Part shown: positions 2,690 through 21,547 of the stretch, in pieces
Position numbering within the stretch: the stretch's first letter is position 1
How the letters are laid out: every line of letters starts with the position of its first letter
From: Chthoniobacterales bacterium
GTDB taxonomy: Bacteria > Verrucomicrobiota > Verrucomicrobiia > Chthoniobacterales > UBA10450
Length of the DNA stretch: 37,934 nt
Assembly (NCBI GenBank): GCA_025980625.1
Contig: JAICXG010000001.1
Span: 1-37,934, forward strand
Direction of reading: 5' to 3'
Made by a program: the position numbers and the translations under genes
The notes under the pieces: generated by a model
What the model saw: the letters and a program-made list of their open reading frames with translations, nothing else
What the model was told of the DNA's origin: nothing
The model's database searches: none

Positions 2690-3295
2690 CTACAGCTTCG
2701 TCCGCCCTGACAGGGCGCGGTAAAGGGTGAGCTCGTCGGCCGACTCCAAGCCGCCCCCGGCGGGCAGACCGTGCGCGATGCGGGTGAGAGTGACCGGGTA
2801 TTTCTTCAGCAGTTCGACCAGATAACTGGTCGTCGCCTCTCCTTCGACGTCGGCGGCGAGCGCGAAAATGATCTCGTTAGGCTTTTCTTTTTCCACCCGC
2901 TCGACGAGCGCTGCGATCCTGAGGTCTTCCGGCGCCACGCGGTCGAGGGGCGAAATGCGCCCGCCTAAAGAATGATAGAGTCCACGGAACGCGCTTGTTT
3001 TTTCTAAAGGAAGGATATCTGTCGGTTGCTCGACGATGCAGAGCTGATCGGCGGCACGCGATTCATCGGCACAAATTTCGCAAAGCTCGGCCGTCGCGAA
3101 AAAGCCGCACCGGCGACAAGGTCGCACTGCGGCGCGCGTCTCGGTGATCGCGCGGGCAATGTTGGCGGGATGATCGCTGCGCGCCTGCACCATCCAAAGC
3201 GCGATCCGCTCGGCAGATCGCGGACCCACGCCCGGCATCTGGCGCAATTGCACGATCAGGTCGCGAAGCGCGGCGGGATATTCGGTGCGCTTCAC
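2690..3295 (-). CDS. recR: Recombination protein RecR
   Basis: RecR hallmarks: helix-hairpin-helix MPGVGPRSAERIALW, C4 zinc finger CRRCGFFATAELCEIC, Toprim segment LCIVEQPTDI. I place the start at GTG 3295, which gives 201 aa (normal RecR length) and a GTGA overlap with the stop of the upstream cyclase gene. The longer ORF to 3484 would overlap that gene heavily. Confidence 0.88.
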   Translation of the reverse strand: MKRTEYPAALRDLIVQLRQMPGVGPRSAERIALWMVQARSDHPANIARAITETRAAVRPCRRCGFFATAELCEICADESRAADQLCIVEQPTDILPLEKTSAFRGLYHSLGGRISPLDRVAPEDLRIAALVERVEKEKPNEIIFALAADVEGEATTSYLVELLKKYPVTLTRIAHGLPAGGGLESADELTLYRALSGRTKL

Positions 3296-4560
3296 CGGAG
3301 TGAAGAGAGCGGTTCGGCGACCGTCTCGGGCTCGCTCGCCATATGCAGGCAAAGCGGCTCGAGCCGGCGCAAATACCATTCCAGAGCCCGGTCCGAGTTG
3401 CCGTTGCGGTCGCCGCGCGCGCGGTTGAATTCGGCAAGAGCTTCGTTCCAGCGCCGCTCGCGGAAATAAACCACGCCGGTCCAAAACTGATCGCGTCGCG
3501 CAATCTCCTCTGCCGTCGCCCGGTCGGACAAGACGAGCAGTTCGTAAATCTCGAAACGCTCGTGCGCTTCGGTATTCCGCAGGAAATCAATTGGTCGCGC
3601 CAGTATTTCCTTACCGGCGAGATTGAAGGTGCGCGGACCAAGGAGAATCTGAGAGCCGTAGACCTGGTTGGCGCGCGCGAGCCGCCGGGCAATCTCAAGC
3701 GGTTCGCCCGCCACGACGACCTCGCCACCTCGTCGATCGTCGCGCACGGTCGCGACGACCGCGCCGGAACTGATCCCGATGCGGAGATCGATTTTGCCTA
3801 ACGAGTCCGGTGCGGCGCTGGCGGCGGCACGAAATTGATCGCAAAAGCCAAACGTCGCCCGCGCCGCTTCGATCGCATGCCGTTCGCTCTTATCCGGGAA
3901 ACCGAAGAGCACGCGAATGCCTTCGCCATCCGCGGCATGAAGATAACCGCCTGTCTGCAGAAAATGCCGAGTTGCAAAATCGATGAAGGCACGGGTGAGC
4001 GCGGCACATTCCGCCGGGGCGAGTTCCTCGATCAGGTCGGCTTCGTTGGCGATTTCGCAGAAGACGAAACTGGATTCTCGCACCAAAGGCTGGGAGAGAT
4101 TAAGCGCTTCGCCTTTCGCCAGACGAGCCTGTCCTGCCGGGCCGAGGCGGGCGCCGAAGAGGCGCAGGGTGGCACGGCGCTGCCGGGCCAATTTCGTCCA
4201 GCCGGTGGCGACTGCCAAAGCAGTGGCGATGACCGCAGCGATCATCGCGGGGAGCGGCATGAAATGAACTTGCGCGTGATCGAGCAACCACCCAGCCCCA
4301 ATCAACTCGGCGAGGAGGAGAAGCACGATGCCGAGGCGGCGCCATAAGGTCGTCTCCAACAGCATCGTTGCGGCAACAGCAAACCCGAGGAGGAGGACGA
4401 AAAGGAGATTGCCGAAGCCGGAGATCTCGTTAGTCGTTAGGCCAAGTGTCTGCGCCAGCCAGCGATTCGGGCGCGCGAGAACTCCGGTGAGCTGGAGCGC
4501 GATCGAGATTCCGGCCGCGATCGCTCCGATCCAGAGTGTCCCGAGGAGCGTGCGCTTCAT
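3292..4560 (-). CDS. Membrane-anchored class III adenylate/guanylate cyclase
   Basis: The N-terminal ~130 aa contains several hydrophobic helices. A nucleotidyl cyclase core follows (FVFCEIANEADL, RVLFGFPDK, IGISSGAVVATV, GEVVVAGEPLEIARRL, QILLGPRTF), then a helical C-terminal tail. The start overlaps the upstream stop (ATGA at 4557-4560). Confidence 0.75.
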   Translation of the reverse strand: MKRTLLGTLWIGAIAAGISIALQLTGVLARPNRWLAQTLGLTTNEISGFGNLLFVLLLGFAVAATMLLETTLWRRLGIVLLLLAELIGAGWLLDHAQVHFMPLPAMIAAVIATALAVATGWTKLARQRRATLRLFGARLGPAGQARLAKGEALNLSQPLVRESSFVFCEIANEADLIEELAPAECAALTRAFIDFATRHFLQTGGYLHAADGEGIRVLFGFPDKSERHAIEAARATFGFCDQFRAAASAAPDSLGKIDLRIGISSGAVVATVRDDRRGGEVVVAGEPLEIARRLARANQVYGSQILLGPRTFNLAGKEILARPIDFLRNTEAHERFEIYELLVLSDRATAEEIARRDQFWTGVVYFRERRWNEALAEFNRARGDRNGNSDRALEWYLRRLEPLCLHMASEPETVAEPLSSLR

Positions 4561-6143
4561 TCGCCCGGGCGTTCACCGCCCGGCCCATAGGATTGCAGCA
4601 CCAGTTGGCTGAGAAATTTATCCGGCGCGTCCACCGCCCCCTGGTCGAGAATGAACTTGTTCCTGCCGGTGTTCTTTTTGATCAGGCTAAGGCCGAACTG
4701 AAAGTCCTTGAAGAGATGAGCGCAGAGGTCGTTCATCTTCATCCGCTCGGCTTCGGTGCGTTCGACCAGCCGGTCGAGCGCGGCCTCGTCGAACTGAAGT
4801 TCGAGCGAATGCTCGCGCGAGAAACGCCCGGCGAACAGGATTGCCTGTTGCCGCAATGTTTGCTTTTCCTGCTGCTGACCCTCGGCCATGAGGCGATCGA
4901 GCACGCGTTGCGGTTCGCGCACCAGTTCCTCGGTCACGCGCAATTGCGAAAGACCGGAACCGGCAAGGTAGTATTTGTAATCGCGAAAGAGTCTCTCAAA
5001 AACGGTAAGCAGACCACGCGCGCCGGTCTTTTCCTGGGCGGCGGCGTTCGCGATCAGGAGCAAGGCCGCGTCCTCGAAGCTGATCTCGATGCCGTAGGCG
5101 CGGAAAGCGCGTTCGTATTGCCGAAGGATGCTGCCCTCGGAAAACTTCATGATTTTGTAGAGATCGTCGGCGCTCAGTTCTTCGCAGACGACGCGCACCG
5201 GGAGCCGCCCGATAAACTCCGGTTCGAATCCGTACTCGACGAAATCGCCGGTCGTGACGTGTTTGAAAATTTCGTTGTCGAGCACCTGCACCGGTTCAGC
5301 TTTGAAACCGATCTGGCCCTGCGCAAGCCGCTTTGAAACCTGCGATTTTAAGCGCTCGAACGCGCCGCTCACAACAAAGAGAATGTGGCGGGTGCTGATC
5401 GTCTCGCGTTTGATCTTGCCGCGCCGCTGAAATTCAAATGCCGCCTGGAGCTGACCCTGGAGATCGTTCGCGCTGCGCAGAGGGACCTCGGTTTCTTCCA
5501 TCAACTTGAGGAGCGTCGTCTGCACACCGCGGCCGCTCACATCGCGGCCCACCATGTTGCTGGCGGAAGCGAGCTTGTCGATCTCGTCGATGTAAATGAT
5601 GCCAAATTGCGCGAGGCCAACATCGCCATCGGCCTTATGCACCAGCTCTCTGACGAGATCCTCGACGTCGCCGCCGACATAACCGGTCTCGCTGAACTTG
5701 GTCGCGTCCGCCTTCACGAAGGGAACTTTAATCAAATCGGCAATGTGCTTGATGAGGTAGGTTTTTCCGACACCGGTCGGGCCGACGAGGATAACGTTTT
5801 GTTTCGCGTACTCGGTTTCTTCGGCGCGCTTCGGGTCGTCGACTTCGAGCCGGCGAATGTAATTGACGTGGTTATAGTGATCGCAGACGGCAATGGAGAG
5901 GACCTTCTTCGCTTCCTCCTGTTTGATCACGAACCGATCGAGGTGCGCCTTGATGTCGCGCGGGAGAAAGTCGAAGACAAAACGCTCGCCGGTTTGCCTC
6001 GCTGGCTTTTCCTCCTCCGTCTCGGCGCGCTCGGGCTGGGCGAAAGTGGCGAAGGAAACCTTGTCACCGAAGTTGGATTTCATGAATTCGGAGAGCTTGG
6101 CCTGCAGTTCTTCAGGTGATGGAAATGGCGGGTTTTGATTCAA
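4557..6143 (-). CDS. ClpX-family AAA+ unfoldase paralog without N-terminal zinc-binding domain
   Basis: ClpX-like blocks: DIKAHLDRFVIKQEEAKKVLSIAV, Walker A GPTGVGKT, pore loop TGYVGGDVE, Walker B IIYIDEIDKL, RDVSGRGVQTTLLKLME, and an IGF tripeptide (GQIGFKAEP). There are no Cys residues in the first ~60 aa, so no C4 zinc finger. A ~130 aa C-terminal extension is present. Confidence 0.8.
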   Translation of the reverse strand: MNQNPPFPSPEELQAKLSEFMKSNFGDKVSFATFAQPERAETEEEKPARQTGERFVFDFLPRDIKAHLDRFVIKQEEAKKVLSIAVCDHYNHVNYIRRLEVDDPKRAEETEYAKQNVILVGPTGVGKTYLIKHIADLIKVPFVKADATKFSETGYVGGDVEDLVRELVHKADGDVGLAQFGIIYIDEIDKLASASNMVGRDVSGRGVQTTLLKLMEETEVPLRSANDLQGQLQAAFEFQRRGKIKRETISTRHILFVVSGAFERLKSQVSKRLAQGQIGFKAEPVQVLDNEIFKHVTTGDFVEYGFEPEFIGRLPVRVVCEELSADDLYKIMKFSEGSILRQYERAFRAYGIEISFEDAALLLIANAAAQEKTGARGLLTVFERLFRDYKYYLAGSGLSQLRVTEELVREPQRVLDRLMAEGQQQEKQTLRQQAILFAGRFSREHSLELQFDEAALDRLVERTEAERMKMNDLCAHLFKDFQFGLSLIKKNTGRNKFILDQGAVDAPDKFLSQLVLQSYGPGGERPGE

Positions 6144-9401: not shown

Positions 9402-11009
9402 TCACTCGCATTCGCAGACAACCCGGAACCCGAGATCGTTGCAGGAAAAACTCGGCACGTTCGCGCCCCGGGTCGTCGCGCGCAGGCTGTTGAAGCGCGA
9501 TTTCCAACTCCCGCCGCGATAGACGCGCTTTGCGCCGGAGTTGGCGCCGCGGGGATTCACCTTCGGTTTCCCTTTGTAGGCTTCGAGAAAATCCGAGCAC
9601 CATTCCCAGATATTTCCAGCCATGTCTTCCACGCCGAACGGGCTCGCACCGCGCGGGAATGAACCGATGGGCGCGGTCTCGGCGAAGCCGTCATCGATCT
9701 CGCTGTCGCTCCAGGCAAAGCTGGTATTGCGATCGGCAAAATTTGCCAGGTCGCCGCGATTCTCTTCGCTGCCCCAGGGATATTTGCGACCGTCGGAGCC
9801 GCGCGCAGCATATTCCCATTCCGCTTCTGTGGGCAATCGATAGCGTCGCCGTTCGCGTGCGCTGAGCCACTGACAAAATTTCGCCGCTTCGCTGCTGCTC
9901 ACGTAAACCACCGGATGCCGATCTCCTGCACTGAGCATGCGTTTGCGGAGGTGGCTCGGGTCAAACATCTCGTACTGCACGTTTGTGATCGGATGTCGCG
10001 CAATATAATAGCGGCTGAGCGTGACCTGGGTTAGCGGACGCTCGTTAGGCGCGGCATCGCGCTGCTCGCTCCCCATTTCGAAAACACCCGAAGGCACGAG
10101 CAACATTTCCACGCCGATACTGCTGACGAAGTTCGGGTATTTCGCCCGATCGGCACTCGGATCAATTTTCGGCAGCGTGGAGACAGCGTTGCCATTGGAC
10201 GATCCCGTCGGTGCTTTCGACACGATGATTGCACTGGGTTTGGGCGGAGGTGGCGGCGCGTTCCTGGCTTCGATCTCGTCAAGGTAAAGATCGACCATAT
10301 CTTCGGCGTCGGAGGGGGCAATCCCAAGGTTCTCCGCCATGTTGATAAATGCGTCGCGCTGGTCGTCGGTCATGTCGTCCGCGTCGAGGCCGCTCAGGCG
10401 GAGCATACGCAGGAAATCCGCGTTCGGATCCAGCGGCGCGGATTGTTGCTCGGCCGCGGCTGCGCTGGTCGGGACCGATTCGTCCGCGCTGGGCGGCATC
10501 GCGCGGGCGGCGCCGGTGCGCTCCATTCCGGTCTCGATTAAGTCCAGCATGCGCTCGTCGCTCAGCCCACGGTCGCGGCCAAGCTCGAGCAAGCTCTCTT
10601 CTTCCTGCGGCGTGAGTGTTTTATCGCTCAGCGCAAAGGCGAGATATTTGTTAAATTCAGCCAGCGCCTCCTGCTCTGCCTCGGCAGCGAGTTGTGCATC
10701 AACCTGTTCGCGGCGCTCAGGATCAAGTAATTCGACCCGTGCTTCGGTGAGAAAGCGCGACGATTCATCCAGCCCGGAGCGCAAAAGCTGCGCAAGCGGA
10801 TTACTCGGCTGGTTCTTGAGCGGCAGCTTTTTCTGCCACCAAAGGAGGAGCGTGCGAAAATGCTCTTCGATCAGCTCGTTGCTCGGATTGGCTCGCGGAT
10901 CGAGGCAGAGACGCTCGTACGGGTTGGGCGAGTTGTAGCGGCTCCAGCCGTCCCACTTCCGTGGATCATCCGGCAACGGCAGCGGAAAGGTTGCCGTGGG
11001 CTGGAGCAT
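9402..11009 (-). CDS. J-like / FGE (SUMF1)-fold domain protein, partner of the adjacent Hsp70
   Basis: The C-terminal ~250 aa matches the formylglycine-generating-enzyme fold (RHPITNVQYEMF, PVVYVSSSEAAKFCQWL, YRLPTEAEWEYAARG, GNIWEWCSD, VYRGGSW, DLGFRVV). The N-terminus resembles J-domain helices but has no HPD. The start codon is 1 nt after the Hsp70 stop. Confidence 0.8.
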   Translation of the reverse strand: MLQPTATFPLPLPDDPRKWDGWSRYNSPNPYERLCLDPRANPSNELIEEHFRTLLLWWQKKLPLKNQPSNPLAQLLRSGLDESSRFLTEARVELLDPERREQVDAQLAAEAEQEALAEFNKYLAFALSDKTLTPQEEESLLELGRDRGLSDERMLDLIETGMERTGAARAMPPSADESVPTSAAAAEQQSAPLDPNADFLRMLRLSGLDADDMTDDQRDAFINMAENLGIAPSDAEDMVDLYLDEIEARNAPPPPPKPSAIIVSKAPTGSSNGNAVSTLPKIDPSADRAKYPNFVSSIGVEMLLVPSGVFEMGSEQRDAAPNERPLTQVTLSRYYIARHPITNVQYEMFDPSHLRKRMLSAGDRHPVVYVSSSEAAKFCQWLSARERRRYRLPTEAEWEYAARGSDGRKYPWGSEENRGDLANFADRNTSFAWSDSEIDDGFAETAPIGSFPRGASPFGVEDMAGNIWEWCSDFLEAYKGKPKVNPRGANSGAKRVYRGGSWKSRFNSLRATTRGANVPSFSCNDLGFRVVCECE

Positions 11010-11010
11010 C

Positions 11011-12573
11011 TCAAACGACGCTCAGTTGTCCCAAAGCAAGGGCTGCTCGATCCAGTTCCGATTCGGAAAGACCGGTCTTGCGCTCGATCGAGACCGAGGC
11101 GCGATTCCCGCAGGCTTCCACCTGCACTTCCAGTACCTGATTGTTGTTGTACTCGTAGGTGAGCTCGACCGGCGAACCTTTGGGTAAGAATGGCGGCAAC
11201 TCGACGTCGCAAATCCCGAGCGGCGTGCATTCCTGCGGGAGCGAACTCTCGCCCTCCACCACTCGGACAATGGCGCGCTGCATGTTGGCCGTCGCTGTGC
11301 CGAAGGAATTTTTCACCACCGCTGGCATCGGCGTCATCTTCTTAATCATCGGGAAGACGTACTCTTCGAGGTGCGTCTCATCCCAGAGGACGACGCCGAG
11401 TGTGTGCGAAGTAATATTTCGCACCTGAATGAGGCCGCCTTCCCGTGAGGAAAATTGCTGGCGCGTTTCCGGCGGAAGCATTCTCTCGCCAGTTTCCTGT
11501 TCCTCATGGAGGAGCGACAACACCGCTTGGATCGCCGCACCCATTGCGACCGCTTCATCCGGGTTCACATCTTCGGCCAAAGGCACCGAGGAGAGTTCCG
11601 CGATCATGTTCCGCACCATCGGCATTCGCGTCATGCCGCCGACGAGGAGAATCTTGTTCACCTCGGACCAGCTCATCTTCGCCTCGTCCATCACGATTTC
11701 GCAGATCGCCTTGCACTTCTCGACAAGGTGCCGCGTCATCTTTTCAAATTCTTCCCGCGTCAGCTCGACCTTGATGCTTTTGCCGTTATGGCTGTGCACG
11801 ATCGTCGTCCGCTCGCGGCTGGAGAGCTGGATCTTGGCGGCGAGCGCGCGGCTTTGCAGGTCCTGGTAACTCTGCAGATCGAGTAATGGATTTTCTCCAT
11901 GCGCGCGGTCGAACTCTTCCGCGACATGATTTACCAGAGTGTCGTCCCAGTCTTTACCGCCGAGGCGATGGTCGCCGTTCGTCGCCACCATCTCGAGTCG
12001 ATGGCCTTGGATGCGCATGACGGTGACGTCGAAGGTGCCGCCACCGAGGTCGAAGACGAACACCGTCTGGTCCTCGTCCAATTTATCGAGACCGTAAGCG
12101 AGCGCCGCCGCCGTCGGTTCGTTGATGATTTGCAGCACGTTGAGTCCTGCCAGCCGGCCGGCCGTGATCGTCGCCGTCCGCTCAGCATCGTTGAAGTACG
12201 CCGGAACTGTGATGACCGCGTCGGTGACCGGTGTTTTCAGATACTTCTGAGCGTCGCACTTCAGTTTTTTTAAAATGAGCGCGGAGAGTTCCTCGGCCGA
12301 ATATTTCGTTCCCCCAAATTCGCGATGGAATTGCTCCTTCGATTTGCCCACCTCGCGCTTTATGAAATCGACGATCTTCTCCGGCTCGGCGACGCTATTG
12401 TTCTTCGCGATCGTGCCGACGATCGCATTCGTGCCGTCGAAGAGAACAACCGACGGCGTGATCCGCTCGCTCTCCGAGTTCGGGATGATCTGCGGTTTTC
12501 CGTAAGAGTCGATGTGGGCGACGGCGGAAAAGGTCGTGCCGAGGTCGATTCCGACTGCTTTGCGATTGCTCAT
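11011..12573 (-). CDS. Hsp70-family ATPase, short form (no C-terminal helical lid)
   Basis: Actin-fold Hsp70 motifs are present: VGIDLGTTFSAVA, ITVPAYFNDAER, INEPTAAALAYG, FDLGGGTFDVTV, LVGGMTRMPMV. At 520 aa it is well over 100 aa shorter than canonical DnaK. Confidence 0.9.
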   Translation of the reverse strand: MSNRKAVGIDLGTTFSAVAHIDSYGKPQIIPNSESERITPSVVLFDGTNAIVGTIAKNNSVAEPEKIVDFIKREVGKSKEQFHREFGGTKYSAEELSALILKKLKCDAQKYLKTPVTDAVITVPAYFNDAERTATITAGRLAGLNVLQIINEPTAAALAYGLDKLDEDQTVFVFDLGGGTFDVTVMRIQGHRLEMVATNGDHRLGGKDWDDTLVNHVAEEFDRAHGENPLLDLQSYQDLQSRALAAKIQLSSRERTTIVHSHNGKSIKVELTREEFEKMTRHLVEKCKAICEIVMDEAKMSWSEVNKILLVGGMTRMPMVRNMIAELSSVPLAEDVNPDEAVAMGAAIQAVLSLLHEEQETGERMLPPETRQQFSSREGGLIQVRNITSHTLGVVLWDETHLEEYVFPMIKKMTPMPAVVKNSFGTATANMQRAIVRVVEGESSLPQECTPLGICDVELPPFLPKGSPVELTYEYNNNQVLEVQVEACGNRASVSIERKTGLSESELDRAALALGQLSVV

Positions 12574-12691
12574 GTGAAGGTTCCTTGAATTCGTGCTTGG
12601 ATGCGTTTGCCCTCTAATGCAGTTTTCGTGCCCCAGACTGCGGAATTCTGCGCCGCAATTTGCGGCGCTGCGGGACTCCTCGCCGCTTTGC

Positions 12692-13357
12692 CTAACGAAA
12701 GCGCCTGGCGACTACTTCTTCCGGGCGAAGCAGCGTGCCGCGCCAGGTGAATCCACGCTTCAGCCGCTGCACAATCCGCCCATCTTCTTCCGGCGATTCC
12801 GCCGATTCAAAGGAGATCACTCGATGCACGGTGCGATCGACTGTTTCCTGCTCCTCGATTTCATTCACTTCGAGGCGGCGCAGCATTTCGAGCAGGAAAT
12901 GGAGCACGTTGGCGAGATTGTTCCGGGCCTGTGCCTCCTCGGCTTCCCCCTCTCCGCTCGGCGTCGCCTGGCTGGATCGAGCTGCGATTGCGCTCAGATC
13001 ATCGAAAAGCACGAGCAGATCGCGAATCACCGGCTTCTGCAGCGATTCGCGCACGAAATTGTCGCGATAACTGATCAACTCACGATGAAGCGAATCGAAA
13101 AGCTTTTGATTAACCGATTCTGTCTCGCGCAGTGCCGTGAGCTGCGCTTCGATTTTCTGAAAATGCGTCGCCTCGAAATTGCGCACCACGCTTTCTTCGA
13201 CCGCCTCGAGGCGCTGCCCTAACGAATGGACTGCGCTCAGCAGGGCGGTGATCCCGGAGGTCACCCGCTCGTCCGAGCTCAGCGGCGGCGCGGGCGCGGC
13301 TTCCGCACTCAAACCTTGCATCATGAGCGCAAACTCGGGCTCGTCTGTTTCCGTCAT
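12692..13357 (-). CDS. GrpE-like nucleotide exchange factor (divergent)
   Basis: A coiled-coil N-terminal half is followed by a GrpE-like pattern (FDSLHRELISYRDNFVRES, VIRDLLVLFDDL, LEMLRRLEVNEIE, VQRLKRGFTWRGTLLRPEEVV). It lies directly upstream of the Hsp70 gene. ATGA overlap with the upstream cobA/hemD stop. Confidence 0.6.
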   Translation of the reverse strand: MTETDEPEFALMMQGLSAEAAPAPPLSSDERVTSGITALLSAVHSLGQRLEAVEESVVRNFEATHFQKIEAQLTALRETESVNQKLFDSLHRELISYRDNFVRESLQKPVIRDLLVLFDDLSAIAARSSQATPSGEGEAEEAQARNNLANVLHFLLEMLRRLEVNEIEEQETVDRTVHRVISFESAESPEEDGRIVQRLKRGFTWRGTLLRPEEVVARRFR

Positions 13358-14886
13358 CGCTGCTCCCGTGACGCGAAATGCCGCCGGATCGCCTCGGCCA
13401 GACCGGCAATGTCGTGCTGCGAGGCTTCGACTGCGATCGTTAGGCCACGGGCTCGCGCGGTCTGCGACGTGATCGGTCCGATGCTGGCGACTTCCATCCC
13501 GCGCGGCCAGGGGAGGCCGAGGGCCAGAAAATTTTCCACCGTCGATGAGCTCGTAAAGGTGATCATATCCGCGCCTTCCGCCACCAAACGTGACTTTGCC
13601 GCCGTGCGGTCGCTCGTTTCCGCAACCGTTCGGTAGGCAAAGGCAACGTCGACAATTGCGCCCAGCGCTCCGAGTTCCTTTGGTAGCAGGTCGCGCGCCT
13701 CCTCCGCCCGCGCGATCAAAATCTTGAGATTTTCAAGGTCGCCTTCCTTTTTAAATTCGCGCACCACTGCCTCGGCCACGAACTCTTCAGGTTGCAGATC
13801 CACCTTTAGGTGAAAATCCCGGACTCGCTGCGCCGTCGCCGGACCGATCGCAGCGATACGCGCCGCGCCGATTTCGCGCGCGTCGTCGTAAAGCTTGTAA
13901 AACATTTCGAAGAACGCGGTCACGCCATTCGGGCTCGTGAAGACAATCCAATCGTAGCTGTGCGCGTCCTGCACCAGTTCGGCAAAAGCGCGCAGGTCGC
14001 TCGGCGGTTCGATCCGAATCGTCGGCAGTTCGATGATATCGGCGCCGAGCGAACGCAGTTGCTTACTCAGCGCGCCGGCTTGTTTGCGCGTCCGGGTGAC
14101 CACGATGCGCTTGCCCGCGAGCGGGCGTTCGGCGTGCCAGTTCAATTCCTCCCCTAACGACACAACTTCGCCGAAAATCGCCACCGCCGGCGGAGCGAAA
14201 GCAGTTTCCGCAACCCGTTGCGCGATATTTTCCAACGTGCCGCGCACCGTCTCCTGGCGTCCAGTCGTTCCCCAACGCACCAGCGCCACCGGCAGGTCGC
14301 GCCGGACGCCGTGCTCAATCATTTGCCCGGCGATCGCGTCAATCCGCTCCACCCCCATCAGCATCACCTGAGTGCCGCCAAGTTTTGCCAGCGCTGCAAA
14401 GTCGATCCCGCTCTCTGTCTTCTCCGGGTCTTCGTGTCCGGTGAAAATTGTGACGTGTGAAGTGAGCCCGCGATGTGTCACCGGAATGCCGGCGTACGCC
14501 GGAGCGGCGATCGCGGAAGTGACGCCGGGGACAACTTCGAACGGAATTCCTGCCGCGACCAACGTCTGCGCCTCCTCGCCGCCGCGCCCAAATAGAAATG
14601 GATCGCCACCTTTCAGCCTAACGACGGTTTTCCCGGCACGCGCCTTTTCGACAAGCAGCGCGTCAATTTGATCCTGCGTCAGCGTGTGCTTGCCAGCTTG
14701 TTTGCCCGCGTAGATGATCTCTGCGTGCTCCGGCGTCCATTTTAGCATTTCGGGATTGCACAGATAATCATACACGACCACGTCAGCCTGTTCGATCAGT
14801 TGCATTGCGCGCAAGGTGACAAGCCCGAGATCGCCCGGGCCGGCGCCCACGAGGTAACAACGGCCGGGTTTCCTGTTATCTGCCAT
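13354..14886 (-). CDS. Bifunctional uroporphyrinogen-III C-methyltransferase / uroporphyrinogen-III synthase (CobA-HemD fusion)
   Basis: The N-terminal half is SUMT-like (YLVGAGPGDLGLVTLRAMQLIEQADVVVYD, VVRLKGGDPFLFGRGGEE, VPGVTSAIAAPAYAGIP). The C-terminal ~250 aa is HemD-like. It sits in a heme operon. Confidence 0.85.
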   Translation of the reverse strand: MADNRKPGRCYLVGAGPGDLGLVTLRAMQLIEQADVVVYDYLCNPEMLKWTPEHAEIIYAGKQAGKHTLTQDQIDALLVEKARAGKTVVRLKGGDPFLFGRGGEEAQTLVAAGIPFEVVPGVTSAIAAPAYAGIPVTHRGLTSHVTIFTGHEDPEKTESGIDFAALAKLGGTQVMLMGVERIDAIAGQMIEHGVRRDLPVALVRWGTTGRQETVRGTLENIAQRVAETAFAPPAVAIFGEVVSLGEELNWHAERPLAGKRIVVTRTRKQAGALSKQLRSLGADIIELPTIRIEPPSDLRAFAELVQDAHSYDWIVFTSPNGVTAFFEMFYKLYDDAREIGAARIAAIGPATAQRVRDFHLKVDLQPEEFVAEAVVREFKKEGDLENLKILIARAEEARDLLPKELGALGAIVDVAFAYRTVAETSDRTAAKSRLVAEGADMITFTSSSTVENFLALGLPWPRGMEVASIGPITSQTARARGLTIAVEASQHDIAGLAEAIRRHFASREQR

Positions 14887-15829
14887 AAAGTTGCTCGACC
14901 AATTTCACTGCAACTCGTTCCGGATCTTCCCTTGGACCTGCGGCCGTGCCGACGTGCGGCGCGGACTTGTCGGTCGCGAAAACCTGGGCGCACAATGTCA
15001 GTTCCGCATCTTCAATTCTGGCGCGCACTCCGACTGGCGAATCGCAATCTCCATGTAATAACCGCAGAAACTCGCGTTCGGCGCGCAGGCAAAGGTGGGT
15101 CACACGATCGTCCACCGCCGCGACCAAACGCTGCGCACGGCGATCGTCTCGTCGCACTTGCAGCGCGATGATCCCCTGCCCTCCCGCAGGAACAAAATCA
15201 TCCTGCGAAAGAATCTCAGCTTTGTAAGGCAACCACTCCGCTTGCCCTGTCGGTGGGCGGAGCGCCTGCTCAGCAATTTCGATCCCCAGCCGCTCCAGGC
15301 CGGCGCGCGCGAGAATGATCCCGCTCCAGCTTTCATTCTCTCGCAACTTGCGGAGGCGCGTTGGGACGTTCCCACGCAAACCCACGATTTGCAGATCGGG
15401 ACGCTGCCAGGCGAGCTGGCGTTGTCGTCGAATGCTGCCGGTCGCGATCGTCGCGCCCGTTCCTAAACTCGTTAGGCCAACACCATTCTTCGTAATCAGA
15501 ACATCCTCCGTTTTGGCGCGCGGCAGCACGCCCGCGATTTGCAGTTCCTCTTCCGATTGGCTCGGCAAATCCTTTGCGCTGTGCACTGCGAGGTCGATTC
15601 GCCTAACGATGAGCTCCTTCTCGATCTCGCGCGTGAACAATCCCTTGCGTCCCGCGTTGCGGTCAACGATCACCGCCGGCTTTGTCCCTTCATCGCCGCT
15701 CGTCCGGATGATCTCGATCCTAACCTCCAATTCCGGCCAGCCCCGGCGCAGCGACTGTTCGACCAGCCGCGTCTGGGCGAGCGCGAGATCGCTCCCGCGC
15801 GACCCGAGGATGATGCGCTCCGCACCCAC
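14876..15829 (-). CDS. hemC: Hydroxymethylbilane synthase (porphobilinogen deaminase)
   Basis: ILGSRGSDLALAQT, VRIEIIRTSGD, LVHSAKDLP-type motif (AVHSAKDLP), RGNVPTRLRKL, and the cofactor Cys region LHGDCDSPVG. GTG start directly abuts the hemA stop. Confidence 0.9.
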   Translation of the reverse strand: MGAERIILGSRGSDLALAQTRLVEQSLRRGWPELEVRIEIIRTSGDEGTKPAVIVDRNAGRKGLFTREIEKELIVRRIDLAVHSAKDLPSQSEEELQIAGVLPRAKTEDVLITKNGVGLTSLGTGATIATGSIRRQRQLAWQRPDLQIVGLRGNVPTRLRKLRENESWSGIILARAGLERLGIEIAEQALRPPTGQAEWLPYKAEILSQDDFVPAGGQGIIALQVRRDDRRAQRLVAAVDDRVTHLCLRAEREFLRLLHGDCDSPVGVRARIEDAELTLCAQVFATDKSAPHVGTAAGPREDPERVAVKLVEQLYGR

Positions 15830-16879
15830 TCAGGTTTCGGACGCGCGCAAAGATGATCCACCGAGCGGCCGCTCCGGTGCCGCGCTGAACCAGCCGCTGA
15901 AATCGTTAACGTGCTCGTCAATGATCTGCTCGGCCACATCCATCTGCTCGCGCCGGAGAGCGAGCGATTGCTGCGCGATGGATTGGAGCGAATCGATGTC
16001 GTAAAGGAATACACCCTGCATCTCGTTGACATCGGGGTCGACATCGCGCGGCACCGCGATATCGATAATGAACAGCGGGCGATCGAGCCGGTCGTGAATC
16101 AGCGGTCCCAGCCGTTCGCGAGTCAGCACCGGTCGCTGCGCAGCGGTCGAGGAAATGACAATGTCGACCTCGCGAAAATGTTGTTCCCATTCGTGCAATC
16201 GCACCGCGTAACCGCAGATCAGCGCCGCCAACGCCTGGGCCCTTTCCCAGGAACGATTCGTCACCCGAATGTCGCGCACCCCTCGTTTCACTAAAGCCCG
16301 CGCCGTTCGCTCGCTCGCCGCGCCCGCTCCGAGCAAAAGCACTTTGCGCGATTCGAAGTCGCCGAAAATCTTTTCCGCCAGATCGACTGCGACTGAGCCG
16401 ACCGAGACCGATCCGCGCGTGATTCCCGTGAGGGTCCGCACTTGTTTGGCCACACGAAATGCACGCTGGAAAAGCCGATGCAACAACGGGCCGGCCGCAC
16501 CCGAAGCACGGGCGGCTTCGTATGCTTTCTTCGTTTGCCCGAGGATCTCAGTCTCGCCGATGACCATCGAATCGAGACCCGAGGTGACGCGAAAAAGATG
16601 CTGCACACAGCGCCAGGCTTCATAGCGGTAAAAGGCGTTCAGTTCCTTCCCGATCTGGTCGATTCCGTGCGTGCAAAGGCATTGCACGATCCGCTCGCTC
16701 GGAATCATCTCCTCAGCGACGGCATAAACTTCCACCCGATTACAGGTCGTGAGAAAGAGCGCTTCGCGACAGCCGGCTTCTTCGCGCAGGATGCGATCGA
16801 TCCCGCCGTGCCCGACGAAACGCTCCCGGGTTTCCACCTCTGCGGTATGATGACTGATGCCGAGGCAAAAGAGATTCAT
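15830..16879 (-). CDS. hemA: Glutamyl-tRNA reductase
   Basis: MNLFCLGISHHTAEVETRERF, TCNRVEVY (catalytic Cys), LFRVTSGLDSMVIGETEILGQ, and the NADPH-binding stretch VLLLGAGAASE. Start at ATG 16879 (ATGA overlap with the upstream gene). The longer ORF to 17122 is an upstream read-through. Confidence 0.9.
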   Translation of the reverse strand: MNLFCLGISHHTAEVETRERFVGHGGIDRILREEAGCREALFLTTCNRVEVYAVAEEMIPSERIVQCLCTHGIDQIGKELNAFYRYEAWRCVQHLFRVTSGLDSMVIGETEILGQTKKAYEAARASGAAGPLLHRLFQRAFRVAKQVRTLTGITRGSVSVGSVAVDLAEKIFGDFESRKVLLLGAGAASERTARALVKRGVRDIRVTNRSWERAQALAALICGYAVRLHEWEQHFREVDIVISSTAAQRPVLTRERLGPLIHDRLDRPLFIIDIAVPRDVDPDVNEMQGVFLYDIDSLQSIAQQSLALRREQMDVAEQIIDEHVNDFSGWFSAAPERPLGGSSLRASET

Positions 16880-17670
16880 CAGAGCGTCTTCGTCTGCCAG
16901 AGAAACGTAATGCCCCAGAGCACCGTTAAAGCTGCGCTGAACGCAAGCACACAGAGGCTGGCGATAGCTCGCGGCGCGGTCGTGCCGAGATGCCGCGCGA
17001 TTAGAATGGCTGCGTAAAAGATCCATACGCCTAACGACCAGGCGATTTTCACGTAGGGCAGCGGTTCTCCGGTCAAGAATCCGGTGACCAGCCCCACTGT
17101 CAGCAGAACAAAGCCGAGCCAAAGCAGCCGGGTTATCGCAGAGAACAGATCGGTCAAAGGCGGGAAATGATAGAACATCGAATTAATGCGGCGACGCTTG
17201 AGCTGTCGTTCTTGCACGAGATACATGATCCCGGCAATGCAGGCGAGGGCGAAAGCCCCGTACGCGACCAGCGAGATGGAGGCGTGCAATTCGAGCCATG
17301 GCGACGGCTCGTGCCGCATCAGCGGCGGTCGATCGATCGGTGCCAGCAGCGCGAAAGTCTGGAGAATGAAAACCAGCGGCGCGGTGAACGCGCCCATCAA
17401 AGACAAGCGGTAAGCCGGTCCGATCACCAGATAGATGAGCGAAACCGACCAGGCGAGAAAGATAAAGACTTCAAACAGGTTCGTGAGCGGACAGCGCCCA
17501 AGCGCATGCCCGCGGACGCTGAGAAACGCGGTCTGAAAAACGAACCCGAGCGCGATTGCAAAAAAATTGAGCCCAGCCGCCTGATAGTTTCGCGCCTGAA
17601 CGGAGAGCGCGGTGCGCACCATCGCGAAAAAGAAGCAGAGCGTGGAGAAAATCAGCAGCTCACGATCCAT
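16879..17670 (-). CDS. CcsA/HemX-like cytochrome c assembly family membrane protein
   Basis: Polytopic membrane protein with a Trp-rich CcsA-type segment (WLELHASISLVAYGAFA, AWSLGVWIFYAAIL). Its position next to hemA resembles hemX in hemAXCD operons. The start is uncertain: ATG 17670 is chosen, but the ORF is open to 17793. Confidence 0.6.
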   Translation of the reverse strand: MDRELLIFSTLCFFFAMVRTALSVQARNYQAAGLNFFAIALGFVFQTAFLSVRGHALGRCPLTNLFEVFIFLAWSVSLIYLVIGPAYRLSLMGAFTAPLVFILQTFALLAPIDRPPLMRHEPSPWLELHASISLVAYGAFALACIAGIMYLVQERQLKRRRINSMFYHFPPLTDLFSAITRLLWLGFVLLTVGLVTGFLTGEPLPYVKIAWSLGVWIFYAAILIARHLGTTAPRAIASLCVLAFSAALTVLWGITFLWQTKTL

Positions 17671-17927
17671 CCGAGGCAATGGTAAGAGCCGCTCCGCGGC
17701 TTGGCAAACCGGCTCCGCAGCAAGGCGCGCTTCCTGCTTTTTCTCAGCGACGAGATGAACACGTTGACGCGCAGGCGGGGCGGACACCGACACGCATCAT
17801 CCGAGATCGAAGCACTGCGCGCAGCGCTCGACCGGAAATACGCGCAAATGCGGTCACGTGCCGAAGCGGAATGGAAACGCCAGCATGCCGGCGCCGAAGC
17901 CAGCGACAGCTGCGTGCGGGTGCGAGT

Positions 17928-17935
17928 TCGTTAGG
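17928..17935 (-). repeat. Intergenic copy of the abundant 8-mer (TCGTTAGG on + strand)
   Basis: Exact match in the divergent region between the hemX-like gene and apt. It also forms the CGT-TAG end of a possible small ORF. Confidence 0.9.
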
Positions 17936-18007
17936 CGGAAAAGCCTGCGACCGTTGGCGGATGTCGCGGCGCGTTGACGGCCGTTGCGGAGTCGCTAGCC
18001 TGCGCCC

Positions 18008-18538
18008 ATGATCGCTGACACCATTGAGCGCCTGCGCGCCGGCGTGCGTGATGTGCCGAATTTTCCAAAACACGGCATCATCTTTAAAGACATCACACCC
18101 ATCTTGGTCGACGCCCAGCTCTTTCGCGACTCAATCGACATTTTTCTCGCGCGCTGCCGCGGCCTGCCGATCGATAAAATCGTTGGGATCGATGCGCGCG
18201 GATTTCTTTTCGGGGCGGCCGTAGCTTATGCGCTCGGCGTCGGCTTCGTCCCGATCAGGAAAAAAGGAAAGTTGCCGTTCAAAACCGAAAGCGCCTCTTA
18301 CTCACTGGAATATGGCGATGCCGCAATGGAGATGCACGTCGACAGCATTGCGCCCGGAGAAAAAATCGTGCTGATCGACGACCTGCTCGCGACCGGCGGC
18401 ACCTCATCGGCGGCGGCGGCGCTGATCAACAAAGTCGGCGGCGACCTGCTCGAAGCGCAGTTCTTGATCGAGCTGGAATTTCTTCACGGCCGGGAAAAGC
18501 TCGCGCCCACTCCGGTGGTTAGCTTCCTGAAATGGTAG
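18008..18538 (+). CDS. apt: Adenine phosphoribosyltransferase
   Basis: VPNFPKHGIIFKDITPIL, IVGIDARGFLFG, and PRPP loop VLIDDLLATGGT; 176 aa. Confidence 0.92.
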   Translation: MIADTIERLRAGVRDVPNFPKHGIIFKDITPILVDAQLFRDSIDIFLARCRGLPIDKIVGIDARGFLFGAAVAYALGVGFVPIRKKGKLPFKTESASYSLEYGDAAMEMHVDSIAPGEKIVLIDDLLATGGTSSAAAALINKVGGDLLEAQFLIELEFLHGREKLAPTPVVSFLKW

Positions 18539-18832: not shown

Positions 18833-20020
18833 TTACTGCACCTCAAATGCCGGGGTTCCAGCGCTGAATTGGATCCACTGGCCTCCAAGATTGAGTGCAA
18901 ATTGCGCCCCATTAGACGCAAACCAGGAAGCGTCAAGTCCGGATTGCTCTGCGGTCGTCGTGGCAGTGACCCAGTACTTGACGTTTTTCGTTAAAGAGGG
19001 CGCATTATGAAGTTTGGCCACAGCCAAATTGCACGGCTCGATCTGGGCGGTGGCCTCTCCAGAAACCAATAGAGTTCCGGGACCTTCTCCGCAGTTATCC
19101 GTGTAGATGCTCAATGTCACCTTGTTCTGCGGACAAACCGTTGCGAAGTTTAGGATGATTGGCGCGAAGATGCGCTGGGGAATGCCGGTTCGGGTAGCAA
19201 CAAATGGCACCGCCTCCCAGTGAGTCTGTCCTGGCAGGGTGCAGTTGTCCGGCCCGCGTACGTCAAAACCGCTGGCATTTGGATCGTAATTACATCCAGT
19301 GCATGGATCGACAAACATATTGCTACCAAATGACCTCGTGGCCGCCGATATCGTTTCTCTTGTCTCGGTGCTGGCTCTCCCCTGCATCATAAAACTTGGC
19401 GTGCCGGCTGCGGATTGAATCCAGCCGTCACCCAAATTGTAGGCGAGTTGAGCATTATTCGATGCATACCAGCGGGAGTCTAACGCGCTTTGTTGGCTGG
19501 TCGTCGTGGCCGTGATCCAGTATTTCGTGCCCTGGACAAGTGATGGGGCATTGCGAATTTTGGCGACAGTCAAATCGCACGAGCTTGCTGGCACGGTTGC
19601 TTCTCCCGAAACAAGCAAAGTCCTAGGTCCTTTCGGGTAGCACGCATCGGTGTAGATGCTGAGCGTGACTTTGTTCTGCGGACAGTTGGTCGGGTTCTCC
19701 AGGATGAGTGAGGTCGTAATGCGATCGGGCACACCGCTGGCCGCCGCGATGAATGGCACTGCTTCCCACTGCGTTGTGCCAGGTTCCGTGCAGTTATCCG
19801 GCCCTACCACCGCATAACCGCTCGGGTCAGGATCATATTTACAAGTGCTACAGGGGTCGACGGCGAAGTTGCCGCCAAAGGTGATCCGCGAGGCATCCGG
19901 TGTTGTCTCGCTTCGGCTGCGCTCTTCCTCCAGTGGTTGCGCCATAAGCGTTCCACACGCCGCTATCGCAACAATTGTCAGACTGATTTTCACAAATTTG
20001 CCTTCGCCCGTGAAATTCAT
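18833..20020 (-). CDS. Secreted protein with two tandem ~168-aa six-cysteine domains (unknown family)
   Basis: Start at ATG 20020, preceded by GGGGA, followed by a signal-like KISLTIVAIAACGTLMA. Two internal repeats (about 19379-19885 and 18836-19336) share long identical blocks (QNKVTLSIYTD, LLVSGEAT, EAVPF, NAPSL, KYW.TATTT). The segment has lower GC. Confidence 0.6.
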   Translation of the reverse strand: MNFTGEGKFVKISLTIVAIAACGTLMAQPLEEERSRSETTPDASRITFGGNFAVDPCSTCKYDPDPSGYAVVGPDNCTEPGTTQWEAVPFIAAASGVPDRITTSLILENPTNCPQNKVTLSIYTDACYPKGPRTLLVSGEATVPASSCDLTVAKIRNAPSLVQGTKYWITATTTSQQSALDSRWYASNNAQLAYNLGDGWIQSAAGTPSFMMQGRASTETRETISAATRSFGSNMFVDPCTGCNYDPNASGFDVRGPDNCTLPGQTHWEAVPFVATRTGIPQRIFAPIILNFATVCPQNKVTLSIYTDNCGEGPGTLLVSGEATAQIEPCNLAVAKLHNAPSLTKNVKYWVTATTTAEQSGLDASWFASNGAQFALNLGGQWIQFSAGTPAFEVQ

Positions 20021-20223
20021 TTCCCCATTTCCGATGCGATCTGTCAATTCGCCGCGTCCTCGCGACAGCGTCGATCCCCCCAGCCGAGCCATGGCAAAGG
20101 GCAGGAGAGCCGCCCAATCAGCGTGAGACACGTTGCTTTGAGCGAAGGGCCGAAATCCTGAGCCAGGGTGGCGGGAGCATTCATCCTTTGCGCTCTTCCC
20201 AGCGCCGCAAGCTGAAGCTTCCG

Positions 20224-20625
20224 CTAGCCTGCGCCGCAGGCGCAGCCGCTCCCGCAATTTCCGCTCCGATCCGGCACAATGACTTCGACGCGGATCTCCT
20301 GAAGCGCAAGCTGATCGTGAATTGCGCCGAGTAAATCGAGCGCGCGCCCATGCGGCATCTCGGCGCAGCGCAGCTCGATCCGCATTTTTTTCCCCGCTAG
20401 CTCCGGGTGGGCTTCGGTCAGCTCGCCATCGAGCAGGAAAGAGACATAGGCGTTGAATTTTTCCTGCAATTGAAAGAGCTGAAGCTCCGATCCGTCCCAC
20501 GGCCGCGGCTCAAACATGCCGAGCACCACTTCATCAGTCTTCGCGTCGTGCGCGAACAGATCGATCACGCCGGCCTGTTCGATTCCGGCCGGGGTCGCAC
20601 CCGGAGCATGCGCTTCTCCATCCAT
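20224..20625 (-). CDS. Hypothetical small cytoplasmic protein with Cys/Gly-rich C-terminal tail
   Basis: 133-aa ORF with high-GC codon pattern, ending in NCGSGCACGAG. I see no recognisable catalytic motif. The overall pattern loosely recalls small immunity-type alpha/beta proteins; this is unverified. Confidence 0.45.
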   Translation of the reverse strand: MDGEAHAPGATPAGIEQAGVIDLFAHDAKTDEVVLGMFEPRPWDGSELQLFQLQEKFNAYVSFLLDGELTEAHPELAGKKMRIELRCAEMPHGRALDLLGAIHDQLALQEIRVEVIVPDRSGNCGSGCACGAG

Positions 20626-20686: not shown

Positions 20687-21547
20687 ATGGAGAAGAGACT
20701 TCTCGTGTTTCTGACCTTCGTGCTCGTTAGGGCAGCGTCCGCTCAGTTCACGCCCGCTCTGATCCAAAACGCGAGCTATTGGAACGACGGCAAAGCCGAG
20801 TTCAACATCTACGACGCCCGCATCATGCGCTATGGCCAGCCGCGCCAGACCGAGGTTCTCCATATTCTCGTGCGCGAACCTTTTGATCTGAAACAATACG
20901 TCAAGCCCGATAACTGGCAGCGGCCCGGAGTCATCCAGGTGCTAAAGCTCAATCAAGTCCTGCACATCCCGACCGGGCTTTACGTTTACCAGCAGATGCA
21001 CTCGAACTTCTGGCGGGCCGATAATGGCCGGCTCGCGAAATTTTCCCTAACGAGCAACGACAGTTGCGGCAACACCTACAAAGAAGCGCGGCGCTACGGC
21101 AATACTTTTGCCTACCAATGGCACACCTACTGGGATGGAATGGGCGAAGGGCGATCGAAGGTCAGAATTCCGCCTGACGGATTTTTCTATGACGAGCTTC
21201 CGCTCCGGGTGCGAACAATCGATTTTCAATCTCAACCCTCCGGCGATTTCCAGATCGAATTGGCGCCTACCGTGATCAGCTCGAAAAAGGAGAAAGTCGT
21301 GTGGCAACCGGCGCAGGTGCACTATGAGTCAACCGACCGCGCGATCTATGTCACGATCCAGCACCCCGCCGGCACGGATCGCTTCATGCTCGGCCGCGAC
21401 TTTCCGTTTCTGCTATGGAAATGGGACATGGCCGACGGGAGCCACCTGGCACTGAAACGAAGCCTCAAAATCGATTACTGGAATTACCACGGCCTCGGCG
21501 ATCGCAAGCGCGCGCTGCTCAGCCGGAGCGTGGAGCACCCGGATTGA
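20687..21547 (+). CDS. Hypothetical secreted protein
   Basis: N-terminal signal peptide MEKRLLVFLTFVLVRAASAQ; 286 aa; no family recognised. Confidence 0.55.
   Translation: MEKRLLVFLTFVLVRAASAQFTPALIQNASYWNDGKAEFNIYDARIMRYGQPRQTEVLHILVREPFDLKQYVKPDNWQRPGVIQVLKLNQVLHIPTGLYVYQQMHSNFWRADNGRLAKFSLTSNDSCGNTYKEARRYGNTFAYQWHTYWDGMGEGRSKVRIPPDGFFYDELPLRVRTIDFQSQPSGDFQIELAPTVISSKKEKVVWQPAQVHYESTDRAIYVTIQHPAGTDRFMLGRDFPFLLWKWDMADGSHLALKRSLKIDYWNYHGLGDRKRALLSRSVEHPD

Follow-up and report, generated by a model that had tools for sequence, protein, structure and literature searches.

On the minus strand of a 37,934-nt stretch of Chthoniobacterales DNA (contig JAICXG010000001.1 of assembly GCA_025980625.1; the whole stretch is hereafter called the window), three adjacent genes encode a GrpE-like protein, an Hsp70 without the helical lid of DnaK, and a 535-amino-acid (aa) protein that joins a J-like domain to an FGE/SUMF1-fold domain. 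The explanation we favor, with confidence slightly above even, is that this trio constitutes a specialized Hsp70 system paralogous to DnaK, in which the 535-aa protein serves as a dedicated adaptor; a cassette distinct from DnaK, HscA, and HscC is the best reading of the data presented here. An initial annotation, made from the sequence alone, had described the trio as a compact module with a divergent GrpE, and the module stands: all three open reading frames (ORFs) were found on the same strand of the window, with coordinates identical to those first given (Table 1). That annotation knew of no characterized system of this architecture, and our literature search likewise found no earlier description of one, the nearest being the predicted systems of Kaur et al. 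2020, discussed below.

The window Hsp70 was aligned with E. coli DnaK, HscA, and HscC, as well as with homologues from related loci. Its Pfam match spans positions 1–509 of the 599 in profile PF00012, and the nucleotide-binding domain (NBD; matched over residues 4–351) is strongly similar to DnaKs of solved structure, with 290 bits for M. tuberculosis DnaK. D8, K70, E171, D194, T199, and D201 (DnaK numbering) are all conserved, and the NBD is predicted to be catalytically competent. The β substrate-binding domain (SBD-β) is divergent, matching its DnaK counterpart weakly over residues 409–510 (21 bits), with the hydrophobic pocket kept. The protein terminates at about DnaK residue 520, past helix A, and lid helices B–E are absent, which bears out the earlier description of a lid-less Hsp70 with ATPase motifs and a β domain. 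Also missing are the segment equivalent to DnaK 76–101, the D208–D211 loop, and the GrpE-signature loop, the last through a six-residue deletion at DnaK 285–295. Both nucleotide-cleft salt bridges are gone, their residues being lost (R56N, E264S, E267L, and L257Q), and the interdomain linker reads LIQVRN versus VLLLD in DnaK, with D393 replaced by Asn. In DnaK, the cleft salt bridges and the GrpE-signature loop tie the chaperone to GrpE, and their absence accompanies independence from nucleotide exchange factors in HscA and HscC (PMC8215388).

The window Hsp70 reaches neither of the two DnaK equivalogs (NF001413 and TIGR02350; 427 bits versus a cutoff of 648, and 421 bits versus 822.6) nor the HscA equivalog (332 bits versus 708.6), and its neighbors are haem genes and secDF, with no hscB or isc gene. 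Its NBD is 54–62% identical to the Hsp70s of related cassettes, 45% to E. coli DnaK, and 37% to HscC; for the SBD, the values are 30–35% for cassette Hsp70s versus 21% for E. coli DnaK. In a neighbor-joining tree, used for its topology and identities and having bootstraps that are unreliable for some clades owing to a rooting artefact, the window Hsp70 falls among the cassette Hsp70s. NCBI names the members of its cluster ‘Hsp70 family protein’. Scores, architecture, and similarity together argue against this protein being the housekeeping DnaK.

In canonical pairs, Asp35 of the J-domain HPD motif hydrogen-bonds DnaK Arg167 and Gln378, Pro34 packs against Pro419, and His33 forms a bond with the Leu391 backbone (PMC8215388). 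Arg167 is present in E. coli DnaK, HscA, and HscC; its position is occupied by Gln148 in the window Hsp70, by Gln in all Chthoniobacterales copies and in copy L082b, and by Ala or Gly in the remaining cassette Hsp70s. The equivalents of Gln378 and Pro419 are kept. On the adaptor side, hhalign sets Asn70-Pro71-Leu72 (NPL) opposite HPD; this NPL is invariant in 46 orthologues, among which the surrounding stretch, WWQKKLPLKNQPSNPLAQLL, is near-invariant. Relatives carry NPL, NPM, NPK, NPR, HPL, or HPV here, the Asp being absent throughout, and their second J-like domains likewise lack HPD. By these alignments, the Arg167–Asp35 contact is missing on both partners, with Gln148 in the Hsp70 and Asn-Pro-Leu in the adaptor.

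The J-like N-terminus that the initial annotation had proposed for the adaptor emerged from profiles and models alike. Residues 1–300 of the window protein have no Pfam match (and no DnaJ match at E ≤ 0.1); five of 16 homologous N-domains match Pfam DnaJ by themselves, the best at 1.4e-5. hhalign paired the adaptor's J-like profile with the Pfam-detectable second J-like domains of its relatives at 98.3% probability (E = 1.2e-14), and with E. coli DnaJ/DjlB/DjlC at only 21.6% (E = 0.001). The AlphaFold2 (AF2) model of residues 1–260 has a predicted local distance difference test score (pLDDT) of 90.5, and every Protein Data Bank (PDB) match that Foldseek returned for this N-terminal model with a probability of at least 0.8 is a J-domain (target-normalized TM-scores of 0.49–0.70). 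Together, profiles and model support a four-helix J-domain fold in the N-terminal ~100 residues; the J-like domain (residues 20–100) is the most conserved part of the adaptor, with 84% mean pairwise identity. The remaining architecture, first drawn as two helical repeats, a Pro-rich linker, and an FGE fold, was recovered by self-match, pLDDT, and Pfam/Foldseek, respectively.

The N-domain shared by the adaptor family comprises the J-like part and a helical module. Module B1 is kept in all distant relatives and has no Pfam or PDB match, while the slot of B2 is filled in distant relatives by the second J-like domain. By eye, the sequence pattern of the helical module after the J-like domain may resemble that of TerB/DjlA-type helical hairpins. 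Weak matches to one shared region of the PADLOC candidate-defense model PDC-S48 were also recorded for adaptor residues 96–157 (about 10539–10724; 1.6e-4) and for residues 108–161 of P0353 (5.5e-4). The window adaptor has no transmembrane (TM) segment.

The GrpE-like protein scores 45.6 bits against the Pfam GrpE gathering cutoff of 25.8 and lies below every NCBIfam GrpE equivalog cutoff (best, 36 bits versus 176), in keeping with the divergence ascribed to it from the outset. An orthologue profile, distant cassettes included, matches the GrpE structures of E. coli (1dkg, 1.4e-9), Geobacillus, and Thermus (4ani and 3a6m; range 1.4e-9 to 2.5e-7), and the D..H, G-aromatic (GF), and LRP motifs typical of GrpE are conserved in the orthologues. 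Judged by these profiles and motifs, the gene is a true, divergent GrpE homologue. In one Chthoniobacteraceae metagenome-assembled genome (MAG; locus L072, 8288–8434), the Hsp70 gene comes directly after cobA/hemD and the GrpE-like gene was not detected; the partner seems to be dispensable, or encoded elsewhere, in that genome.

Scanning genomes with the adaptor yielded 80 loci, all from Chthoniobacterales or Verrucomicrobiota MAGs, which were analyzed with 10-kb flanks. Complete Chthoniobacterales chromosomes (OZ244652.1, OY969715.1, and CBDCJE010000002.1) carry the trio. In the window, the trio is preceded by hemA, hemC, and a cobA/hemD fusion, and the adaptor gene is convergent with secDF; the order hemA, hemC, cobA/hemD, GrpE-like, Hsp70, adaptor, and convergent secDF is maintained across the Chthoniobacterales loci. 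The Hsp70 gene adjoins the adaptor in 60 of the 70 informative loci of this order, the GrpE-like gene is present in 51/52 (L072 being the exception), and cobA/hemD in 49/50. Median identity to the window is 88% for the Hsp70, the most conserved gene locally, followed by cobA/hemD (82%), secDF (74%), hemA (68%), the adaptor (66%), hemC (63%), and the GrpE-like protein (60%). The co-occurrence of the trio is far beyond chance, and the three genes are under strong purifying selection in a core chromosome context. The haem cluster upstream suggests co-transcription with tetrapyrrole genes; no haem-gene link was seen in distant cassettes.

Ten loci lack an adjacent Hsp70 gene; eight of them hold full-length adaptor paralogues (47–53% identity) that lie elsewhere in the genome. 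At these paralogue loci (L049, L053–L056, L058, L060, and L061), neither Hsp70 nor GrpE was found within 10 kb. Linked and unlinked adaptor copies occur in one MAG (L066 and L056), and at L061 the adaptor paralogue has a distinct DnaJ-like gene (385 aa, 11703–12860) beside it. The remaining two loci, L079 and L080, align with the adaptor over its C-terminal half alone, which is little more than the FGE domain.

More distant relatives came from an exhaustive phmmer search with adaptor residues 1–250, which gave 187 representatives (word-index and N-domain profile searches gave close fragments); their encoding contigs were looked up and checked by tblastn. These adaptors share residues ~13–176 with the window protein at 25–36% identity, and most carry TM segments. 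In several, a Pfam DnaJ domain directly follows the N-domain and is itself followed by Ig-like modules, three to five TM segments, and a variable C-terminus, where FGE-sulfatase, PEGA, Laminin_G_3 (LamG), YARHG, and DUF4440 modules are interchangeable. Of 12 distinct informative metagenomic contexts, 11 encode a lidless Hsp70 (514–538 aa, 44–53% identity over its full length) directly upstream of the adaptor, and a GrpE-like gene lies upstream of the Hsp70 in all nine contexts that reach far enough; only L094 lacks both. The trio is, as expected of a dedicated module, co-conserved in other genomes, within Chthoniobacterales and beyond. The initial annotation had pictured the machine as built around the FGE fold: the partner gene is indeed conserved, but conservation within it centers on the J-like N-domain, the C-terminal modules being swapped among relatives.

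The surroundings of the distant cassettes vary. A gene for an Hsp70-vWA fusion (677–696 aa) precedes three of them (L082, 3100–5779; L083, 2914–5638; L092, 3616–5649), with Arg167 kept in two of the three fusions, and a rhomboid protease gene also precedes L082 and L083. L095 is flanked by DUF932, SNF2 helicase, DUF6094, and HipA genes (10750–18514), a gene for a TraG-like coupling protein lies near L092 (12897–15488), and a NERD-NACHT gene near L082 (15123–18482). Such mobile or defense-type flanks suggest that the membrane-type cassette moves horizontally. Genes for TPR or Zn-ribbon-TPR proteins recur at L082, L093, L095, L097, and L098. A comparison of Hsp70 tails from the window, L082, L083, L087, L088, L092, L093, L095, and L097 found a conserved basic or polar residue followed by hydrophobic-x-(V/I)-x, seen as LSVV in the window (11014–11025), the other tails being IKVE, VNVSG, MIVSS, KVTISG, RMSVSS, and KMTVSG. 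By analogy, conserved tails and recurrent TPR neighbors may recall the eukaryotic EEVD–TPR pairing.

The C-terminal domain of the window adaptor matches Pfam FGE-sulfatase over residues 301–531 (E = 1.7e-54). With the full-length model, Foldseek recognized only the FGE fold, retrieving human FGE (8e-12) and PvdO, and SUMF2 (1y4j) is among the structure matches of the domain. When the adaptor stretch ‘GGSWKSRFNSLRATTRG’ is aligned with the corresponding stretch of human FGE, one of the cysteines (human C336/C341) is replaced by Ser and the other is deleted; both of these catalytic, copper-binding residues are absent in 46/46 orthologues. On this alignment, the adaptor's FGE-fold domain cannot make formylglycine. 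Mean pairwise identity is 78% in the FGE domain and 77% in B2, with no hypervariable region and no sign of diversifying selection, and the FGE loops that AF2 models poorly (residues 404–467 and 499–524) are 84% identical. The two long linkers, predicted to be disordered, stand at 29–36%, with 36% for the low-complexity Pro-rich linker.

Among known systems, HscC with DjlB/DjlC resembles the cassette in pairing a short, specialized Hsp70 with private co-chaperones. HscC shares with the window Hsp70 the deletion of DnaK 76–101, the losses of the D208–D211 and GrpE-signature loops, and an insertion in SBD L1,2 (PMC8215388), and DjlB and DjlC are membrane-anchored, as are most adaptor relatives. 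However, HscC keeps a lid (with a shortened helix B) and Arg167, and its partners keep HPD, whereas the cassette has no lid, Gln148, and NPL. HscC is also regarded as independent of exchange factors, and no grpE gene is linked to it (PMC8215388), unlike the cassette with its GrpE-like gene. HscA/HscB follows the same logic of one dedicated Hsp70 with one neighboring dedicated targeting co-chaperone; yet HscA has a lid and Arg167, HscB has HPD, and the pair lies in the isc operon without a GrpE. Mitochondrial Pam16/Tim16 is an HPD-less J-fold protein that serves as a regulator or adaptor in an Hsp70 system, working via Pam18 on a normal Hsp70. In the cassette, by contrast, the matching Arg is gone from the Hsp70 itself, and none of the genes specifies a partner with HPD. 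pFGE/SUMF2 and PvdO, like the adaptor domain, have an FGE fold without equivalents of Cys336/Cys341, but they are stand-alone secreted or periplasmic proteins, whereas the adaptor's FGE fold is cytoplasmic and fused to a J-like domain.

The nearest published relative is the HSP70/GrpE/DnaJ-FNIII theme of the GAP1-N2 GTPase-centric conflict systems, a computational prediction (Kaur, Burroughs, Iyer, and Aravind, eLife 2020, PMC7159879). Like the cassette, it links HSP70 and GrpE genes to a J-domain protein fused to β-sandwich or other modules; its FGS (FGE-fold) domains are non-enzymatic binders, and its hosts include Verrucomicrobia and planctomycetes. Distant adaptors carry Ig-like, BACON, or DUF5717_N matches after their J-like domains, whereas the window adaptor has no β-sandwich repeat. 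GAP1-N2 systems possess a GTPase and GAP1, but the cassettes examined have no GTPase, GAP1, or tubulin component, and the Chthoniobacterales cassette, unlike those systems, is a fixed core locus. Kaur et al. (PMC7159879) do not describe a lidless Hsp70, an HPD-less J-like domain, or the loss of Arg167.

If the trio works as a dedicated adaptor system, its cycle can be rationalized into three conditional steps. (i) Docking: the invariant WWQKKLPLKNQPSNPL surface of the J-like domain would dock the adaptor at the NBD–linker–SBD-β junction of its own Hsp70, probably with the Pro–Pro419 contact retained, making the pairing private and blocking cross-talk with DnaK and DnaJ. (ii) Binding: the cysteine-less FGE-fold domain would bind a conserved endogenous ligand or protein segment and so confer client specificity, while the open, lidless site would clamp the client, or the adaptor's own disordered Pro-rich linkers, under ATP control. 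(iii) Reset: a GrpE-like dimer would reset the ATPase. Because the adaptor of most relatives is embedded in the membrane and bears another ligand-binding module, the original form of the cassette probably links the Hsp70 to a sensor in the membrane or envelope; the soluble form seen in Chthoniobacterales may have become fixed as a strongly constrained core gene set.

Several points weigh against this scheme. The Foldseek E-values of the J-domain matches (1.5–6) are not significant alone, and parts of the FGE-fold domain are modeled at low confidence. With both HPD and Arg167 missing, ATP hydrolysis may receive no stimulus whatever from the J-like domain. By analogy with HscA and HscC, an Hsp70 devoid of the GrpE-signature loop and of the two cleft salt bridges may use its GrpE-like protein for something other than classical nucleotide exchange. 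In relatives with a membrane-bound adaptor, the membrane may separate the variable domain from the Hsp70, which argues against simple client hand-over as a family-wide mechanism. The cycle of exchange factor, ATPase, and co-chaperone put forward in the initial annotation fares accordingly: its components are present, but a canonical J-stimulation cycle is doubtful, because NPL replaces HPD, Arg167 is lost, and the GrpE-signature loop and salt bridges are absent.

The strongest competitor, which we regard as unlikely yet worth serious attention, casts the adaptor as a regulated client: the Hsp70 would be an ATP-driven switch holding the adaptor or receptor inactive or monomeric until a ligand binds the C-terminal module, with signaling or assembly as the output. 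A lid slows dissociation (PMC8215388), so a lidless Hsp70 is expected to release fast, which suits reversible regulation; the distant relatives resemble TM receptors, with three to five TM segments and ligand-binding ends; and thresholding or assembly roles for Hsp70 were proposed in related gene clusters by Kaur et al. 2020 (PMC7159879). The two long, disordered linkers could offer Hsp70 binding sites, but they are the least conserved parts of the adaptor, which is unexpected of specific regulatory sites, and the window trio has no effector domain.

A role in biological conflict, against phages or other invaders, with the FGE/‘FGS’ domain as the sensor and the NTPase chaperone setting the threshold, appears improbable. 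Kaur et al. (PMC7159879) describe HSP70 and GrpE together with a DnaJ-fused β-sandwich protein and FGS sensors, and the swapping of C-terminal modules among relatives, like the NACHT/NERD (L082), TraG-like (L092), and DUF932/SNF2/DUF6094/HipA (L095) neighbors noted above, would fit such a function. However, the Chthoniobacterales trio occupies a fixed syntenic core position and is nearly universal in the sampled loci, its FGE domain shows no hypervariability, and no GTPase or GAP1 was found in the window or in the Pfam annotation of the 12 distant contexts (the Zn-ribbon proteins of L093 have no P-loop). PADLOC-DB 2.0 gave only marginal matches (E of 1e-3 to 1e-5 over short stretches) for the window and the distant loci. 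A defense-island role in Chthoniobacterales, raised as a hypothesis in the initial annotation, is unsupported, since the trio sits at a conserved core position beside haem genes and secDF and has no significant PADLOC match.

A narrower proposal concerns the client and seems to us about as improbable: the FGE domain would bind the CxPxR region of unfolded sulfatase precursors and bring in the Hsp70 so that they stay competent for modification or export. Human pFGE/SUMF2 is reported to bind this region of unfolded sulfatase precursors, and sulfatases are abundant in Verrucomicrobiota. The adaptor keeps the FGE fold with conserved surface loops (84% identity), and the cysteine-less SUMF2 is among its structure matches (1y4j), yet no sulfatase gene is linked to the trio, and the replacement of FGE by unrelated modules in relatives means that sulfatases are not a family-wide client. 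The convergence of the adaptor gene with secDF would suit an export role but is perhaps plain synteny.

Finally, that the Hsp70 and GrpE-like proteins are merely a divergent housekeeping DnaK/GrpE with an unrelated FGE neighbor is very improbable: the high conservation of the Hsp70, its annotation as DnaK by JGI pipelines, and the failure to find a second Hsp70 or GrpE across the window and ~1.3 Mb of related loci would agree with it, but the DnaK and GrpE equivalog cutoffs are missed, the lid, GrpE-signature loop, Arg167, and CIRCE element are all absent, the protein is closer to cassette Hsp70s of unrelated contigs (three of which have a second Hsp70 gene too) than to DnaK, the adaptor starts 1 nt after the Hsp70 stop and is co-inherited with it, and dnaK proper occurs in ~99% of bacteria, non-PRK00290 Hsp70s being rare accessory proteins of unknown function (PMC11019930; PMC8265645).

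Table 1. Features of the three-gene Hsp70 cassette (window coordinates).
Feature	Position	Strand	Basis
GrpE-like gene, 221 aa	12692–13357	−	Pfam GrpE, 7.9e-12 over residues 65–216
Spacer between GrpE-like and Hsp70 genes, 118 nt	12574–12691	−	Sequence read
Hsp70 gene, 520 aa	11011–12573	−	PF00012, E = 4.8e-126
Hsp70 NBD, residues 1–351	11521–12573	−	Alignment to DnaK NBDs
Gln148 codon (DnaK Arg167 position)	12130–12132	−	Alignment
Lineage-specific insertion and interdomain linker, residues 352–398	11380–11520	−	Alignment
Hsp70 SBD-β, residues 399–500	11074–11379	−	Weak DnaK SBD-β match
Short helix A, hydrophobic C-terminal tail (…GQLSVV), and stop	11011–11073	−	Alignment
J-like/FGE-fold adaptor gene, 535 aa	9402–11009	−	FGE-sulfatase Pfam match, residues 301–531
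Adaptor J-like domain, residues 20–100	10710–10952	−	Pfam of relatives, hhalign, AF2/Foldseek
Asn70-Pro71-Leu72 at the HPD position, within WWQKKLPLKNQPSNPLAQLL	10794–10802	−	hhalign alignment
Helical module B1, residues 101–170	10500–10709	−	Alignment; AF2 pLDDT >90
Helical module B2, residues 195–250, internal repeat of B1	10260–10427	−	Self-match
Pro-rich linker, residues 251–300, predicted disordered	10110–10259	−	pLDDT <50
FGE/SUMF1-fold domain without the catalytic cysteine pair, residues 301–535, and stop	9402–10109	−	Pfam, Foldseek

The GrpE-like ATG and the stop codon of the cobA/hemD fusion before it share bases (ATGA, 13354–13357), and the adaptor ATG lies 1 nt past the Hsp70 stop (TGA g ATG). 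A perfect palindrome, GCGCCGCAAATTGCGGCGC (window about 12642–12660), lies between the GrpE-like and Hsp70 genes; it is not conserved across 55 orthologous spacers, although a spacer length of ~120 nt recurs; given this lack of conservation, we claim no conserved operator. No CIRCE element was found in the window, in agreement with the initial report of no visible heat-shock operator, and promoter and terminator scans gave background levels only.

The trio shares the window with genes of housekeeping function: MacB/FtsX, an AAA+ ATPase, secDF, haem genes, SMC, an M20 peptidase, and an S1/P1 nuclease. The ATPase (528 aa, with AAA_2 and ClpB_D2-small domains and far shorter than ClpB) lies within minus-strand positions 3292–6143, where its gene overlaps by 4 nt a downstream 422-aa ORF with a marginal match to a nucleotide-cyclase domain; the two may form a two-gene unit. 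Three other ORFs, at 18833–20500 (555 aa), 20687–21547 (286 aa), and 32086–34920 (944 aa), have no Pfam match at E ≤ 1e-4.

In the textbook view, prokaryotic Hsp70s are of three kinds (DnaK, HscA, and HscC), J-proteins cannot act without the HPD motif, and specialized Hsp70s operate without exchange factors (PMC8215388). The cassette contradicts three expectations together: the lid is missing, HPD is absent along with its Arg167 counterpart in the Hsp70, and a private GrpE accompanies an Hsp70 without the GrpE-signature loop. A bolder formulation, which we advance tentatively and consider the less probable outcome, is that of a fourth prokaryotic Hsp70 class, defined by a lidless Hsp70, J-like adaptors that use a private WW…NP loop interface instead of HPD–Arg167, and a dedicated GrpE. 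The same tentative proposal, taken as a whole, would include a modular, ATP-controlled coupling of swappable ligand-binding or TM sensor modules to an Hsp70 clamp, and a core, possibly essential, function in Chthoniobacterales.

If the J-like domain truly engages the Hsp70, the cassette would provide a natural orthogonal Hsp70/co-chaperone pair with which to dissect J-domain-triggered hydrolysis, and it would show how bacteria wire an Hsp70 to swappable sensor modules. It also offers a testable function for the many proteins of Verrucomicrobiota and other soil bacteria that are annotated as ‘Hsp70 family protein’ or as cysteine-less ‘FGE family’ members.

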